A model generated the notes under the pieces. That model searched no databases, was not told the DNA's origin, and saw only the letters and a program-made list of their open reading frames with translations. Below, in pieces: positions 1 through 12,187 of a stretch of DNA of 14,325 nucleotides; within the stretch, counting starts at the first letter, position 1, and each line of letters begins with the position of its first letter. Made by a program: the position numbers and the translations under genes. This DNA comes from an archaeon (GTDB lineage Archaea; Asgardarchaeota; Heimdallarchaeia; Heimdallarchaeales; JAJRWK01), in assembly GCA_024276795.1 (NCBI GenBank), contig JAJRWK010000177.1:1-14325 (forward strand), given 5' to 3'.

Positions 1-137
1 CCGTGACCGCAAGTCAAGCCGGCTGGCGTGACAGCCAGTAGTGAGCTGTGCTCGCGAAAGCTGTCAAGCTCTGGTTCGCCAGGGCCATAGCGGCCGGGTG
101 ATACCCGCTCCCATCCCGAACGCGGAAATCACGGCGG
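1..137 (+). rRNA. 5S rRNA locus in circularly permuted order: 3' portion 11-74, UUCG-capped helix I 68-85, 5' portion 79-127, complementary flanks 1-10 and 122-134
   Basis: Conserved 5S blocks can be read directly: AAGUCAAGCC (11-20), GCCAUAGCGG (84-93) and CCCAUCCCGAAC (110-121). Helix V is GACAGC 30-35 with GCUGUC 60-65, enclosing a loop-E-like AGUA/GAAA and a short helix IV hairpin at 41-55. The blocks occur in the order 3' part then 5' part, joined by GCUCUGG-UUCG-CCAGGGC. The left flank is cut by the window edge. Confidence 0.72.
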
Positions 138-158
138 TTTTCTTATACGCTATTTTTT
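138..158 (+). terminator. Oligo-T tracts (T4 at 138-141, T6 at 153-158) immediately after the 5S locus
   Basis: T-runs directly follow the 3' flank helix. Archaeal RNA polymerase terminates at oligo-T. Confidence 0.4.
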
Positions 159-393
159 GGATTCATGTTTATGTTTCAATATTTATGCTTTGGATTAAGA
201 GGCGATTGAGAAAAAAAGAAGACAAATCTCTTCTCAAAAATATATCGATAAAATGATTATTTCTTGTTTTCAAGTTCAACATCTGGTAAATGATTTATGT
301 GAATCGATGTAGAGATTGATGAGATTCATGGGTCTGCTTGGGTTTAATGAACTGATTAATTATTTTCCTCTTCGATCATGAACCAGATAAAAG

Positions 394-943: not shown

Positions 944-2223
944 ATGAAAACAGAGAGAACTTATCAGTACGCGAAATGGACATATCATTTGAAAGAGTCA
1001 GAAATTCGCAGACTTCTACGTTTTAACCCTCCGTATTATTTTGCAGGGGGAAAACCTGGAGCGCTGCCTTTACAGATTATGTCATCTATTATGGAAAGAA
1101 TCATTTCTGAAGAACTTTCTGGAAGGGATGAATTGGAAGCACCCCTGCTCTAGACTATGGTCCATCAGAAGGTATTCCTGAATTACGACAAGTGTTGGGC
1201 GAACGATTACGTAAACGTGATGGAATTGCTTTGACGAAAGGCGAGGAATACAAGGAAGTTATTATAACTACGGGTTCCCAACAAGCAGTTCATGGGATCA
1301 TTGACGCCATGGTAAATCCTGGCGACGTCATAATCGTTCCGATGCCGGTTTACTTGGGCTTTCTTGGTTCAGCAATCAAGTCGGGAGCCAAGATTGTCTC
1401 AATTCCCACGGATAACCAAGGTATCATACCAGAAGGTTTGAACAGAGCCTTGTAACTGCTCGAAAGAGACGAAAAAACTTTGCCCAAGTTAATTCATACC
1501 ATACCATTTTCGGACAATCCAAAAGGAACTACGCTCTCTTCTAGTCGGAAAGCAGCAATATTCAATATTGCCGAGCAATGGGATGTCCTTCTCATAGAGG
1601 ACGCTGCATACAAAGAGATTCGTTATGGTCAAGCAAGAGAAAAGCCCTTGGATCCCATCAAAAAACTGGATAAAGGGAATACTAGGGTTGCATATGTAAA
1701 TTCATCAAGTAAGGAAGCAGCGGTTCTACGGATCGGTTACTCTGTAATTCCTTCTGGGATAAATGAACAAATCATTAAGACCAAAGGATACTATGATCTT
1801 TGTACTCCATCAATAACTCAAAAGATGGCTTTGCACTATTACCGAGACTATATTGATAAAACCCTACCTAAGATAATTGATACTTACGAACAGAGAGCAT
1901 TAGCTATGAAACGTGCCGTTGATGAGTTCCTAGTCGGTTTAAGAACAGATCCTGAAGGTGGATTCTTTATTTGGTTCTCAAGTGAAAATGAAAGATTAGA
2001 CACAACTGCGCTCCTAAATACTGCACTTGAAGCAGGAGTGCTTTATGTTCCAGGAGCCGCGTTTTATCCTTCTTCTGGCTTAGCTTTGGCTTCTGACTTA
2101 TCCCGTTTTGTTCCAAGCGTCAGAAAATCAAATGAGATACGCCTTAGTTATAGTACTTCAAAACCAGAAGAAATCTCAAAAGGTATTGAAATACTTGGAA
2201 ATCTTTTTGCTTCTACGCCCTAA
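944..2223 (+). pseudogene. Class-I/II PLP-dependent aminotransferase (aromatic/2-aminoadipate aminotransferase-like), disrupted
   Basis: Three consecutive ORF fragments (935-1153, 1192-1455, 1480-2223) together read as one aminotransferase: YGPSEGIPELR, TTGSQQA, and the PLP-lysine context NSSSKEAAVLRIGYS. Fragments 1 and 2 differ in frame, with a C4 run at 1142-1145. Fragments 2 and 3 share a frame and are separated only by TAA at 1453-1455. Confidence 0.8.
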
Positions 2224-4144: not shown

Positions 4145-4843
4145 TTAGTCTCCCACGGCGAGATGTAATAGCAATGCGATAAATGCAATCACCGTTAAGA
4201 CCCACTGGCGATGAATCCACTTGATAAGTCCTCTGGCTTCCTCTATTTCCCAGAAGGGGCGGTATTTCTGCCACATGACCAGACCTGCTAGAGACATCAC
4301 GGTGAATGAAACACCAGCTACCATTCCCGTCCAGAATGCCCCCGCGGAGGAGTTCCAGTACGACCACCCATGCAATAATCCAAAAATAGTGGCTAGACCT
4401 AGCGTGGCCACGTGGATGTAAAATAGCGGTTTTCTCAGCTTCCGATACGCCGACGCGACAAATGCTCTGATTTCAGGGTATTCTTTCTTTGGCAAGTATT
4501 TTTGTGTGTAAATGTGAAGCCGTCTCAGAAATACATACGCAAAGCCGATTGCCAATAAGGGTAGCGTTGCTTCTCCTAAGCCACCAAAAGCGCCACCTTC
4601 ACTGTCTCCCTCATAGCCGTCGTCATCCGCAAGCATTGAAGTGGTTGTCAACAGCACCAGAACCGAAATAACCAACAAGGAGACCATCAGAAATCGCTTC
4701 TTATTACTTAGTTGTTGAACAATGCGTAACCTGCCGTTTTTCACAATTGCAAAAAGCGTCCTCATTATAGAAAAATTATGTGGTAAATCTCGTAGATTTT
4801 GCAAACATAGTGATTTGGCGGAGGATATTCGGGGACGAAACAA
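4145..4843 (-). CDS. Hypothetical polytopic membrane protein, possibly a b-type cytochrome or ferric-reductase-like
   Basis: About 5 predicted TM helices. His pairs sit inside helices: IHVATLGLATIFGLLH (H-x13-H) and IHRQWVLTVIAFIALLLH (H-x15-H). An acidic DDDGYEGDSEGG stretch follows the first helix. The start is uncertain: TTG at 4843, ATG at 4765 or ATG at 4687. Confidence 0.55.
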   Translation of the reverse strand: MFRPRISSAKSLCLQNLRDLPHNFSIMRTLFAIVKNGRLRIVQQLSNKKRFLMVSLLVISVLVLLTTTSMLADDDGYEGDSEGGAFGGLGEATLPLLAIGFAYVFLRRLHIYTQKYLPKKEYPEIRAFVASAYRKLRKPLFYIHVATLGLATIFGLLHGWSYWNSSAGAFWTGMVAGVSFTVMSLAGLVMWQKYRPFWEIEEARGLIKWIHRQWVLTVIAFIALLLHLAVGD

Positions 4844-8705: not shown

Positions 8706-9521
8706 TCATCCCGTCCAAATGGACAGTCCGCCCCCTATTTTGGAGACGGCATGTTCAGCCATCTCCATTATCTCTATGGGTGCAAGTTGTTCAATTGTTT
8801 TTCGATCCAGAATAACTACCATTCTTTGTGTTTGTGCGTTAAGTGTTCCAACGATGGGGATGATTCTTCTGGTGTCGATAGTAGTATCTTTGTCAAGGGT
8901 TCGATTTCCTATCTGCTCGTTCACCCATTTAAATAGTTCCTTTCTTGCTAGGTGTTCCCCAACTTCCCTTAGGGAGGCTTTGTGTTGATTTCTGCTTAAC
9001 CATTTTTTCGGAACCCACTTTTCCCAATCAAAATCAAGGATCCAAGTGTGAATGCTCTTGTTTCCCGTGTATACAAACAGAAACTCAAAATCTTTTTTTA
9101 GTACGTCTCTTAGTAGTCTAGCCGTTTCAATGGAGGATTCCAGACTTGTATCTTCTTCAAATGGAACAATTCCGGAGGAAATCATTCGGGGGTGGCCTAG
9201 CACACGTTTAGAAAACGCTCGTGGTTCGAGGAATTCTGCTGAAGACATGAAGCAACGAATAGGATATCTATCAAGTTTCAGGTATGCACGAATTGCTTTT
9301 CCCAGTTTTTTATTTCCAATTGTTCGCCAATGGAGAGTTCGTTGTAGGCTAGCCCACGACTGCTTTCTCTTGATTTTTCCTTTGTGGATTCGCTTCACTA
9401 AGCCCCATATTTTTATTGCTCGGAATTTTAGGTCAACTGATCCGCCATATTCCCAACCCGAGTAGAATGAAGAAATGAATTTTCTGTCTTGCTGGTTGAT
9501 ATTAATCTTTCTTAGGGCCAT
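8706..9521 (-). CDS. Archaeo-eukaryotic primase (AEP) small-subunit-like protein, compact PriS-like
   Basis: 271 aa. PriS-like blocks appear in the canonical order: PIRCFMSSAEFLEP, IVPFEEDTS (the DxD position reads E-E-D), FVYTGNKSIHTWI (the SGxRGxH-type motif) and LDKDTTIDTRRIIPIVGTLNAQTQ (the D...R-L-I-R-x-P-x-S-L-H type motif). GAGG lies 7 nt upstream of the ATG. Confidence 0.6.
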   Translation of the reverse strand: MALRKININQQDRKFISSFYSGWEYGGSVDLKFRAIKIWGLVKRIHKGKIKRKQSWASLQRTLHWRTIGNKKLGKAIRAYLKLDRYPIRCFMSSAEFLEPRAFSKRVLGHPRMISSGIVPFEEDTSLESSIETARLLRDVLKKDFEFLFVYTGNKSIHTWILDFDWEKWVPKKWLSRNQHKASLREVGEHLARKELFKWVNEQIGNRTLDKDTTIDTRRIIPIVGTLNAQTQRMVVILDRKTIEQLAPIEIMEMAEHAVSKIGGGLSIWTG

Positions 9522-9577: not shown

Positions 9578-11400
9578 TTATCCGTAGGGCCAATATTTGA
9601 AGCCAGCCCTTTGTTTGATCTTAACCATTTCCTCTAGAAGTTCTAACTCTCCTGGTTCTAATTGATCCTTGTATTTTGTCATAAGAAGCCTAGCGTCTCT
9701 TTTCCTAATGTCAACATAGAGGATCATTTCTTCTTTGATTTGGCGTCCTACAGTAGGTCCTCGAATGCTAACAGCAACTTGCTTTCCTACAGTTGCTTTC
9801 TCAATGTTTTGTCGGTTTTCCTGGATCTGTTGTATTACACCGACTCTTCGATTGTCTTCACGGATGAGAATATTTCTCGGCTTGATCATTCCAGCGAGGA
9901 CTTCAACACCAACAACTGCTGGTTTGCTGATTCTAAAAATATAATTAGGTAAAATCTTGATTTTTCCTGGTCTTTGGAGGTCTGCAAGAACTTGGCTTTT
10001 TTCTTTCTCCTCTGTCTCTGCTTTCCACGCCATATATTCATCTATGATATGATATATGATGTTTCCAGTAAAAATTGGAAGACCTTGGAGATAAGCTTCT
10101 TCTTCTGCTTCTCCCTGGAACCCAACATTGAAACCGAGAATTACACCATACTGGGGGAGTTTTTCCGCAGTTATCAGAGCTTCTATGACATCTCTTTTTG
10201 TAATGTCTCCAACATCGGCGATTCTTATTGGGATCCCATTACTTTTGAGCATTCCAATCAACGCTTCTAGAGACCCCAAAGTGTCGGCTTTGAGAATAAT
10301 CCCTTCATCTTGGGTTTCGATTCTTAAAGATCGGAGTTCATCTTCGATTTCTTGAGAAAGCTGATTGATTTCTTCTTCAGAATTCGCGACAAAGATTGGT
10401 GCGCCTGCTAGTGCATTTTCAGGATCTTGGACAAGAAGTTTTACTCCTGCGGATGCAAATATTTCATTGGTTCGAGTAAATTTATCTCTTGGATCTCTCA
10501 TTTCATCTAATGGTTTTGGAAGGAGCAAAGCTTTGACTCGACTTACTCTTGCACCGTGTTTGTTGCGAAAACAACAGTGTCATCTTTGCGCATCACACCG
10601 TCGTATAGAACGATGTCTAATGTTACCCCCATTCCTTCCTCTTCTCTTACTTCGAGAACAACTCCAATCCCGGGTCCTTCACTGTAGCGAAGTCGCTTCA
10701 TCAAGTATTGTTGAGTTATTCCAGCAAGAATTAAGAAGAGATCAGGGATCCCTTCTTTAGTGTGAGCACTGACCGGCACAATTGCTACGGATTTGGTATA
10801 ATCTTTTATTCTGTCATAGCGCTCTGACAGAAAGCCCAGGTCGGATAATTCCCCTTGAACCTCATAGATCTTGTTTTCGAGCTCTTGTTGTGTTCTCTTG
10901 TTTTGTTTCTTGATTGTGCCAATGAATGACTCTCCAGGGTTTGCTTTCCACCCCGGAACTCGGTCAATTTTATTCAAAGCCACGATGAATGGTGTTTTTC
11001 TCTGTTTTAGGATGTCTATTGATTCATAGGTTTGTGCTTGAAAACCTCTAGTAGCATCAACAACCAATATTGCAATGTCCGCGACGCTAGCCCCCCTTGC
11101 TCTTAGGTTCACAAACGCTGCGTGTCCTGGAGTGTCGATGATTAAGAGGCCGGGGATCTTTAGATCGATTTTTATTTTCATGACTTCTGCTACAGGTCTA
11201 GCTGCTTCGAGGATTGTCTCTGAAGGGAAGAATGATGCGCCCACATGTTGTGTTATTCCCCCTGCCTCTCTTGCTTGTACTGCTGTTCCTCGCACAGAGT
11301 CAAGCAAAGACGTTTTCCCGCTATCAACATGACCAAGAACAACAGCAATGGGGGATCGGATTCGTTTTTTCTCATCAGGGGGGTTATTCGTCTTGGACAT
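9578..11400 (-). CDS. infB: Translation initiation factor aIF5B (IF-2), interrupted by a 1-nt frameshift near 10559-10561
   Basis: The N-terminal ORF (11400-10543) has GHVDSGKT, DTPGH and NKID. The C-terminal ORF (10528-9578) continues with LLPKPLDEMRDPRDKF and domains III-IV. GAGGTGA (plus-strand 11405-11411) precedes the ATG. Confidence 0.93.
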
Positions 11401-11443
11401 TTTCTCACCTCAATAAAATAATGGTGCTAAGAGGAAAGAACCA

Positions 11444-11902
11444 TTATTGCTCATAGATCCAGGTTTCTTGTACCCAATTCCAATCTACTAGCTCACTTTT
11501 TTCGAAATAGACATTCATTTCATATTTTGCATTCTCGGGGGAATCGGCAGCATGAACAAGATTTCGGCCGATATTCAAACCAAAATCGCCCCTGATAGTT
11601 CCCGGAGCCGCGTCTTGAGGATTGGTTGAGCCTAGAATTGTCCTCATCTTTTGAATGGCATTTTCACCCTCTACAACCATGGGGACTGCGGGTCCAGAAG
11701 TGATGAATTTGACAAGCCCGTTGTAAAACGGTTTACCCTCATGAACAGCGTAGTGTTTTTTGGCGTGTTCTAAAGTTGGGAAAATAAATTTCATGGCAAC
11801 AATTTTTAATCCTGATTTTTCTATTCGTGAAATTATTTCACCAATCAGCCCTCGCTGAACTGCATCGGGTTTTATCATTACGAATGTCCTTTCCTTTTCC
11901 AT
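11444..11902 (-). CDS. ndk: Nucleoside diphosphate kinase
   Basis: 152 aa. ERTFVMIKPDAVQRGLIGEII, GSTNP..A.PGTIRGDFG and the catalytic-His context NLVHAADS. Confidence 0.97.
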   Translation of the reverse strand: MEKERTFVMIKPDAVQRGLIGEIISRIEKSGLKIVAMKFIFPTLEHAKKHYAVHEGKPFYNGLVKFITSGPAVPMVVEGENAIQKMRTILGSTNPQDAAPGTIRGDFGLNIGRNLVHAADSPENAKYEMNVYFEKSELVDWNWVQETWIYEQ

Positions 11903-12111: not shown

Positions 12112-12187
12112 GGATCCGTGGCCTAGTTTGGAAGGGCACCGGCCTCCGGAGCCGGCGGCAGGGGTTCAAATCCCCTCGGATCCGCCA
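12112..12187 (+). tRNA. tRNA-Arg (anticodon CCG), CCA encoded
   Basis: 76-nt cloverleaf folded by hand. Acceptor is GGATCCG/CGGATCC, D stem GCCT/GGGC, anticodon stem CCGGC/GCCGG with loop CTCCGGA, T arm AGGGG-TTCAAAT-CCCCT, discriminator G, then CCA. Confidence 0.95.

Follow-up and report, generated by a model that had tools for sequence, protein, structure and literature searches.

The stretch analysed here, called the window, is the entire 14,325-bp contig JAJRWK010000177.1 of the assembly GCA_024276795.1, and the element in question is a 5S ribosomal RNA (rRNA) gene at its left end, where the contig begins 3 nucleotides (nt) inside an outer helix formed by the flanks of the gene. Judging from its ribosomal protein S2, which is 60–68% identical to proteins of Kariarchaeaceae and Heimdallarchaeaceae metagenome-assembled genomes (MAGs), the host is a Heimdall-group Asgard archaeon, and the MAGs closest to the window carry the name Candidatus Heimdallarchaeota. 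Few genes of cellular life are as conserved or as readily recognised as that of 5S rRNA. A first-pass annotation had read the beginning of the window as a 5S rRNA gene in which the 3′ portion precedes the 5′ portion, and when the window sequence was checked, all the 5S elements that it had listed were found in place. Positions 13–127 are a complete 5S rRNA in permuted order, that is, the 3′ part, a helix I closed by UUCG, and the 5′ part. As read from sequence, positions 1–144 are the 3′ nine-tenths of a small independent transcription unit encoding this circularly permuted 5S rRNA, and run CCGUGA-CCGC-AAG, the 115-nt body (13–127) and A-UCACGGCGG-UUUUCUU, with the following parts.

1–6, + strand: 5′ strand of the outer processing helix (CCGUGA), pairing with 129–134; truncated by the contig end, the full strand in relatives being CCGCCGUGA
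7–10, + strand: 5′ strand (CCGC) of the central 4-bp helix of a bulge-helix-bulge (BHB)-like motif, pairing with GCGG at 122–125
11–13, + strand: AAG, the second "bulge", which is really a loop as no inner helix closes it; predicted cut A12/G13
13–127, + strand: permuted 5S rRNA body of 115 nt, the predicted excised and circularised product; full-length match to the covariance model R1
13–28, + strand: GUCAAGCC and helix II 3′ strand, comprising the helix III proximal 3′ strand, loop B and the helix II 3′ strand (minimum free energy (MFE) fold and alignment with canonical 5S)
29–66, + strand: helix V, a loop-E-like internal loop and a shortened helix IV hairpin (41–55) (MFE fold and R1 match)
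68–85, + strand: helix I as a closed hairpin, GCUCUGG (68–74), UUCG (75–78) and CCAGGGC (79–85), with one G.U pair (MFE fold)
86–125, + strand: loop A CAUA (86–89), helix II 5′ strand (90–98), helix III, loop C CCCAUCCCGAAC (110–121) and GCGG (122–125) (Rfam and R1 matches)
126–128, + strand: AAA, the 3-nt bulge of the 3′ strand, of which A126–A127 are the conserved helix III AA bulge; predicted cut A127/A128
129–137, + strand: 3′ strand of the outer processing helix (UCACGGCGG), by complementarity
138–144, + strand: T-run TTTTCTT directly 3′ of the helix, by position and composition a likely archaeal terminator

AAGUCAAGCCGGCUGGCGU occupies 11–29 and GCGGAA 122–127. In the MFE fold, 13–16 pair with 99–102 and 19–25 with 91–97, while helix V (30–35 with 60–65) is lengthened to 29–35 with 60–66; the strands of the loop-E-like element are CAGUA (36–40) and GAAA (56–59). 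The gene order is the helix III proximal 3′ and helix II 3′ strands, helices V and IV, the helix I 3′ strand and a YNMG tetraloop, followed by the 5′ strands of helix I and helix II in turn, and helix III together with loop C. The permutation breaks the gene exactly at the conserved AA bulge of helix III.

Covariance Model Matches and Fold of the Permuted 5S rRNA

Model R1 was built from seven canonical haloarchaeal 5S genes that were cut in silico between the AA bulge of helix III and the next G, with helix I closed by UUCG and the Rfam consensus pairs imposed. It contains zero Asgard sequences, and three bacterial 5S were left out of it, as with them included MAFFT misaligned helices IV/V and RNAalifold lost helix V. 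R1 matched window 13–127 over model positions 1–126 of 126 with 72.0 bits (E ~1e-14), well beyond what chance would give. Full-length scores on the same unit at loci of other assemblies (designated L001, L003, L004, and L016, and introduced in the next section) were 72.0 bits for L001 and L016, as for the window, 69.9 bits for L003 and 85.1 bits for L004, while native canonical 5S genes searched with R1 gave two partial matches each.

With the Rfam model RF00001, the window gave a single match at 77–196 with 38.4 bits against a cut-off of 38. The truly aligned part of it is 77–135, to which RF00001 positions 1 to ~58 align with high posterior probability, and the remainder is AT-rich spacer. 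Rfam on window 1–80 alone found no 5S, so the 3′ part is not recognisable on its own, and no family besides RF00001 matched window 1–260 at a meaningful score. At the gathering threshold, Rfam returned no 5S from L001, L003, L004, or L016; two sub-threshold partial RF00001 matches (30.9 and 26.9 bits) were obtained from L004, and canonical 5S genes from plasmids scored 68–106 bits. The first-pass annotation had expected a covariance model to tell a permuted gene from decayed tandem fragments, for which the score would be no better after de-permutation. The score improved, from the mis-bounded 38.4 bits of Rfam on the native sequence to the full-length 72 bits of the permuted-format R1 at 13–127.

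Compared with the RF00001 family, the locus lacks the co-linear order in which free ends form helix I, while the conserved blocks are present: CAUAG at 86–90, CCCAUCCCGAAC at 110–121 and, after joining 127 to 13, CGGAA-GUCAAGCC, the block expected across the helix III bulge of 5S being GGAAGU(Y)AAGC. The three-way junction with helices I–V, loop E, and the AA bulge was also found, with covariation, helix IV being shorter than the haloarchaeal one. Both the de-permuted form (79–127 joined to 13–74) and the circular form had the canonical 5S three-way junction as MFE fold. The de-permuted loci aligned co-linearly with haloarchaeal and bacterial 5S genes at 55–69% identity, and blastn of the de-permuted query against haloarchaeal 5S produced one high-scoring segment pair (query 5–88) that crosses the junction at 49|50.

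Two other arrangements were considered and rejected. Tandem 5S fragments do not fit the upstream DNA of L001, L016, L003, and L004, which is AT-rich and promoter-like and not 5S, and a split gene with a large intron does not fit the window, which has no second copy of the 3′ part.

Recurrence of the Permuted Gene in Two Asgard Lineages

A total of 185,579 species genomes were scanned with a fairly strict pattern, the matches to which are a minimum of the taxonomic spread, and the Heimdallarchaeota MAG contigs JALTMP010000118.1 (L001) and JAMOVR010000354.1 (L002) were found. A looser pattern, built to exclude co-linear genes, was run on JGI metagenomes and returned the JAMOVR contig again (L003) together with a divergent copy, L004. 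Following the neighbouring Lrp gene led to L016, a 45,367-bp ENA scaffold with the unit in its interior at 2683–2797, where, as in the window, the unit is upstream of that Lrp gene. L001 shares with the window the 5S unit alone, at 97% identity. L004 belongs to Candidatus Freyarchaeota: a protein with that annotation shares 100% identity with its TrpRS. The L004 locus was present in four assemblies, one of them a 124,588-bp contig with the unit inside. The 5S body of L004 is 64.5% identical to that of the window, a distance as for haloarchaeal 5S, and despite this the permutation point is identical. The same permutation, which the first-pass annotation had proposed to seek in related genomes, was thus found in JALTMP01, JAMOVR01, the ENA, Logan, and JGI assemblies, and the Freyarchaeota lineage, so that the arrangement recurs in assemblies of NCBI, ENA, JGI, and Logan; the misassembly that it had been concerned about is excluded by the units lying inside 45-kb and 124-kb contigs of independent assemblies.

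Contigs were found to end at or inside the unit in the window (position 1) and in the contigs L017 (1), L015 (1), L018 (1), L036 (16683), and L037 (16663) of relatives. Breaks at one place in several independent assemblies are to be expected of a repeat, and indicate that the unit is a genomic repeat. In the window and L016, a 5S copy is followed by an Lrp gene; JALTMP contig 118, besides one internal copy, terminates 54 nt upstream of that gene. A second copy in the JAMOVR-type genome was located downstream of a TFIIB gene, the two copies sharing ~70 nt of identical upstream sequence, the putative promoter. There are at least two copies per genome in at least two genomes, all of them permuted.

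Pairing was then analysed on three distinct sequences in an alignment fitted to the model. Standard pairs made up 97.8% of the pair cells, with nine compensatory pairs (four in helix I and three in helix V), and register-shift controls gave 28–44% standard pairs. Small as a sample of three sequences is, this covariation together with the full-length model matches excludes a pseudogene.

Several searches concerned the 5S genes of relatives. No 5S adjoined TrpRS in relatives at 65–81% identity, and none was found at the Lrp synteny in relatives at 55–59% identity. In a complete Ca. Heimdallarchaeum genome, a 20-kb sample around rpS2 showed no 5S of either order, canonical or permuted, which carries no weight either way, and no canonical 5S was found in ~85 kb of Heimdall- and Freyarchaeota-group Asgard DNA scanned with Rfam. 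No 5S gene was predictable in the circularized Heimdallarchaeum genomes (Wu et al. 2022, PMC8813620). These missing calls fit the finding and are not proof of it, because the Heimdallarchaeum rpS2 is only ~60% identical to that of the window. An aIF5B-NDK block is syntenic between window 9578–11902 and L003 3378–5966, and is inverted relative to the 5S unit, therefore the 5S neighbourhood has been rearranged between close relatives.

Putative Transcription Signals

Upstream of the unit, the DNA of L001, L016, L003, L036, and L004 is rich in AT and does not resemble 5S. At the Heimdall loci, a TATA-like box (ATAAATAA in L001, AGATAAATT in L016, and CATTTATT in L003) ends 29–30 nt before the outer helix; in Freyarchaeota (ATTTATATT), the distance is 23 nt and the helix is 4 bp longer. 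After the helix, a T-run follows in every case: T4 in the window, T8 in L001 and L016, T5 in L003, and T5 seven nt downstream in L004. By position and composition, these elements are likely a promoter and a terminator.

TTGCTG, or TGCTG in Freyarchaeota, was observed just before the outer helix at all loci, about where transcription should start, in the following regions.

L001 1860–1880: TTGCTG region
L016 2655–2668: TTGCTG region
L003 14030–14045: TTGCTG region
L004 1955–1965: TGCTG region

ORF lists and gene callers put spurious open reading frames (ORFs) with no Pfam match over the permuted 5S in L016 (2684–2902, − strand, 72 aa) and L004 (1866–2285, + strand, 139 aa). About 200 nt upstream of the 5S in L004, at 1687–1767, Rfam gave weak matches to two C/D-box sRNAs, sR3 and sR23 (E ~0.3), probably by chance.

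The Flanks Form a Helix With a Relaxed BHB-Like Motif

The flank complementarity described from the window alone was present, 1–6 pairing with 129–134 and 7–10 with 122–125, with A126–A128 and A11–G13 unpaired. The leftward continuation of the 1–6/129–134 helix, for which the first-pass annotation had suggested looking beyond the contig end, was found in the relatives, where the outer helix beside the junction to be ligated has 9–13 bp at all loci and compensatory changes.

Outer helix of the window, L001, and L016: (A)CCGCCGUGA with UCACGGCGG(U), 9–10 bp
Outer helix of L003: GCCGUCGUGA with UCGCGACGGC, 10–12 bp
Outer helix of L004: CUGGGCACCGUGG with CCACGGUGCCCAG, 13 bp

Across the three lineages, 5 of the 10 bulge-proximal pairs of this helix differ on both sides. 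The central helix is CCGC/GCGG in the window, CCGU/GCGG in L001, L016, and L003, and CUGG/ACGG (3 bp plus G.A) in L004, that is, all four pairs are formed in Heimdall and three of four in Freyarchaeota. In each of the four loci, AAG lies directly 3′ of the 4-nt central strand; GGAAA does not vary between loci, and Heimdall and Freyarchaeota have the same distance between the outer helix and the required cut. The geometry in both lineages is therefore an outer helix, an AAA bulge, a 4-position central helix, and AAG.

The strict hBHBh′ motif, with two 3-nt bulges 4 bp apart and each closed by a helix, was not found, as AAG has no contiguous inner helix; the first-pass annotation had already cautioned that its motif was relaxed on this side. 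The relaxed motif (HBh′, or bulge-helix-loop), as defined in PMC5829648, in which a long helix, a single 3-nt bulge and a 4-bp helix are combined with a second site placed in a loop at equal spacing, is present, and its geometry is kept in the Heimdall and Freyarchaeota loci. Kaneta et al. described the Asgard splicing endonuclease EndA as an (alpha-beta)2 enzyme with an L1 loop, the loop that gives TACK-type EndA broad specificity for relaxed BHB and bulge-helix-loop (BHL) substrates (PMC5829648). Genes for EndA and RtcB were not found on the 14,325-bp window contig.

In a BHB, whose two 3-nt bulges stand 4 bp apart, the archaeal splicing endonuclease cleaves either bulge behind its second nt. 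Cuts placed by this rule at 127|128 and 12|13 would, upon joining, give ...GCGGAA-GUCAAGCC..., which is co-linear with canonical 5S in both lineages and agrees with the junction proposed from the window. In the Heimdall precursors, the BHB conformer was computed to lie 0.3–1.1 kcal/mol above the MFE, and 2.4–3.9 kcal/mol above it when the rest of the 5S was held native, and is thus predicted to be energetically accessible.

Other Features of the Contigs

A class I/II aminotransferase gene at window 944–2211 is disrupted by a frame change near 1132–1141 and an in-frame stop at 1453–1455, and its orthologues in L015 and L016 are intact (423–426 aa). This lesion could be a sequencing or assembly error, pseudogenisation, or recoding. 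The aIF5B/IF-2 gene at window 9578–11400 (− strand) is split by a frameshift near 10558–10576, and its L003 orthologue is a single 610-aa ORF; the two lesions together suggest a contig of modest consensus quality. Two window ORFs on the − strand, 8706–9521 and 4145–4843, had no Pfam match, the former being conserved in L003 (52% identity) and adjoining aIF5B. A tRNA-Arg(CCG) gene was detected at window 12112–12187 with 65.4 bits and a GC content of 0.68 (contig GC 41%), and no intron was detected in it.

Proposed Maturation of the Permuted 5S rRNA

From these features, a maturation pathway can be proposed. In the precursor, the four flank nucleotides CCGY would pair with GCGG, the distal helix III 3′ strand, and this pairing would yield the outer helix, AAA bulge, 4-bp helix, and AAG of a relaxed BHB (bulge-helix-loop) substrate. 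EndA would cut after the second nt of each bulge, at A127|A128 and A12|G13, and RtcB would join A127 to G13, by which ...CGGAA-GUCAAGCC..., that is, helix III with its AA bulge, would be rebuilt on a closed RNA of 115 nt (122 nt in Freyarchaeota). Finally, the circle itself, and not a re-opened precursor, would be built into the 50S subunit, which is the least certain step.

The steps differ in how confidently they can be proposed. We consider excision and ligation of the permuted 5S into a closed circle likely, and the permuted RNA probably serves as the 5S component of the 50S subunit. The circular form is also probably itself the 5S of the subunit rather than its precursor. Helix I is capped by UUCG, CUCG, or CACG, one in each of the three lineages and all fitting YNMG, and the circle is likely the permanent form because the cap is only 4 nt, conserved, and a stable YNMG; the connector looks like a structural cap and not a processing spacer. 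The functional SRP RNA circle of Thermoproteus (PMC4731332) is one of the precedents for this view. The most inclusive statement, that in at least two Asgard lineages (the Heimdallarchaeota clade and Candidatus Freyarchaeota) the only 5S genes are permuted and the ribosomal 5S is a closed circle made by the splicing machinery, is put forward tentatively, with a chance a little below even.

Some observations weigh against the pathway. The motif is not the canonical hBHBh′, and a ~19-nt loop would stand opposite the second bulge if the rest of the 5S were folded. The Freyarchaeota central helix has a G.A mismatch, and forming the BHB conformer there costs 5.6 kcal/mol relative to the MFE. In no precursor is GCGG paired with the flank in the MFE fold, but always within helix III, and the covariation rests on three distinct sequences only.

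Among the alternatives, the one that survives best shares the cut by EndA and the ligation by RtcB, but takes the circle as an intermediate, in which an endonuclease opens the helix I tetraloop to release a conventional linear 5S. Precedents exist, as the permuted tRNAs of Cyanidioschyzon mature via a circular intermediate that is re-cut (summarised in PMC4267664), and circular archaeal 16S/23S have classically been seen as intermediates that are later re-linearised (PMC12918454). However, the connector here is only 4 nt and of the stable YNMG family in all three lineages. No archaeal enzyme is known to cut a tetraloop on a 5S helix. A permuted 5S with closed helix I works in engineered E. coli ribosomes (PMC7283268), and circular 23S rRNA has been reported within mature archaeal ribosomes (PMC12918454). 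Re-linearisation is thus regarded as unlikely, though it is the most credible of the alternatives.

A product that is never ligated is less probable still. Here, the mature RNA would be a linear permuted 5S, with the flank helix kept as a terminal stem on helix III or trimmed to a nick at the AA bulge. Brown-algal mitochondrial 5S stay permuted when mature (PMC4267664), and the MFE fold of every precursor is the mature 5S fold plus a terminal helix. However, a linear product leaves the conserved cut-site geometry, namely the 3-nt bulge, the 4-nt strand complementary to GCGG, and AAG, without explanation, and the BHB rule reproduces the canonical junction in two lineages whose 5S are only 64.5% identical. 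A 9–13-bp stem at the helix III AA bulge would moreover occupy a conserved ribosomal-protein binding surface, and EndA cleavage products are normally ligated by RtcB.

It is very improbable that the RNA is a 5S-derived paralogue with another role or none, the ribosomal 5S coming from a co-linear gene elsewhere. 5S genes have been reported from some Asgard MAGs outside these lineages, but the permuted RNAs keep all 5S helices together with the loop A, loop C, and loop E-like motifs, with compensatory changes, and are encoded by two or more copies per genome, every one of them with a promoter region of its own. The ~85 kb of Rfam-scanned Heimdall- and Freyarchaeota-group DNA without a canonical 5S, and the complete Heimdallarchaeum genomes in which 5S is unpredictable (PMC8813620), also argue against a paralogue.

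An artefact or debris, whether decayed fragments of tandem 5S copies or a chimera joined at a contig end, has a negligible probability and is already refuted, for although the window contig begins inside the feature and its conserved genes show two frameshifts and an in-frame stop, independent assemblies have the identical unit in the interior of long contigs, promoter-like and terminator-like signals accompany it, its 5S pairs covary, and the same permutation point is found in a lineage with a 64.5%-identical 5S.

Comparison With Known Permuted and Circular RNAs

For the pathway by excision and ligation into a circle, the closest analogue would be the permuted signal recognition particle (SRP) RNA gene of Thermoproteus tenax, whose transcript EndA processes to a functional circle (Plagens et al. 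2015, eLife, PMC4731332). In both cases, the gene for an essential and universally conserved structural RNA is permuted and missed by canonical gene finders. In Thermoproteus, a flank structure unites the termini, the tRNA splicing endonuclease cuts, and ligation produces a circle that is the functional RNA (PMC4731332). Unlike this thermoproteotal case, which was established by RNA-seq and in vitro cleavage, the RNA here is 5S, the host is an Asgard archaeon, and the processing is deduced from sequence.

The leader/trailer stem with a BHB motif is shared with the archaeal circular pre-16S and pre-23S and with permuted or circular 23S of archaea such as Pyrococcus (PMC7758197; PMC12918454). 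The EndA cut and RtcB ligation of archaeal pre-16S/23S yield circular rRNA, and for 23S the circle can be the ribosomal form (PMC12918454). However, the archaeal 16S/23S genes are co-linear and their natural ends are joined, whereas the Asgard 5S gene is itself permuted and ligation would rebuild the internal helix III. Processing of 5S, unlike that of 16S/23S, usually takes place without excision and circularisation, according to a 2026 Genome Biology study (PMC12918454). Circular 5S species have been detected in Sulfolobus and Halobacterium by circular RNA sequencing (Danan et al. 2012, PMC3326292); these come from co-linear genes with the natural helix I ends joined, and were of low abundance, unvalidated by reverse transcription PCR (RT-PCR), and possibly degradation products (PMC3326292).

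In permuted tRNA genes, such as those of Cyanidioschyzon merolae, the 3′ half also comes first, and a BHB-type junction is cut and ligated to give a circle. Circularly permuted tRNA genes have also been reported in Thermofilum pendens. RNase P and tRNase Z then open the tRNA circle again at a spacer, which restores normal ends, whereas the Asgard 5S is connected by a 4-nt tetraloop in which no processing signal is evident.

Stramenopile mitochondria are the only known source of permuted 5S rRNAs (PMC4267664). Like the brown-algal and other stramenopile mitochondrial 5S (mtPerm-5S; Valach et al. 2014, PMC4267664), the Asgard gene has helix I as a closed hairpin with the ends elsewhere, and is missed by standard 5S models. 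In contrast, mtPerm-5S is organellar, has its ends at the alpha/gamma three-way junction, involves no BHB and no ligation, and remains linear and permuted as the final RNA (PMC4267664). The marks of mtPerm-5S, that is, a 5′ hairpin for helix I, alpha/gamma ends, and a linear product, were not found in the Asgard gene, in which the break lies in the helix III bulge and loop A is continuous. A search of the full-text literature on permuted or circular archaeal 5S and on the 5S of Heimdall- and Freyarchaeota found no description of such a gene. As far as sequence analysis goes, the reading supported is that of a BHB-processed permuted RNA gene, here for the first time for a 5S rRNA, of which no earlier description was found outside organelles.

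Implications for Asgard Archaea and Their Genomes

The permuted 5S loci are missed or mis-bounded by Rfam, so that annotation pipelines would report a wrong interval (77–196 in the window) or no 5S at all (L001, L003, L004, and L016), and this affects the scoring of MAGs as "high-quality" under the Minimum Information about a Metagenome-Assembled Genome (MIMAG) standard. A permuted gene, if true, could explain why 5S is unpredictable in complete Heimdallarchaeum genomes.

If the proposed maturation is true, this would be the first circular 5S rRNA and the first permuted 5S gene outside organelles. The moonlighting of the splicing endonuclease and RtcB would then extend from tRNA, SRP RNA, and 16S/23S to the last rRNA thought exempt from it, and a probably circular 5S would join the circular 23S recently reported in archaeal ribosomes. 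The permuted 5S sits in the archaeal group closest to eukaryotes.

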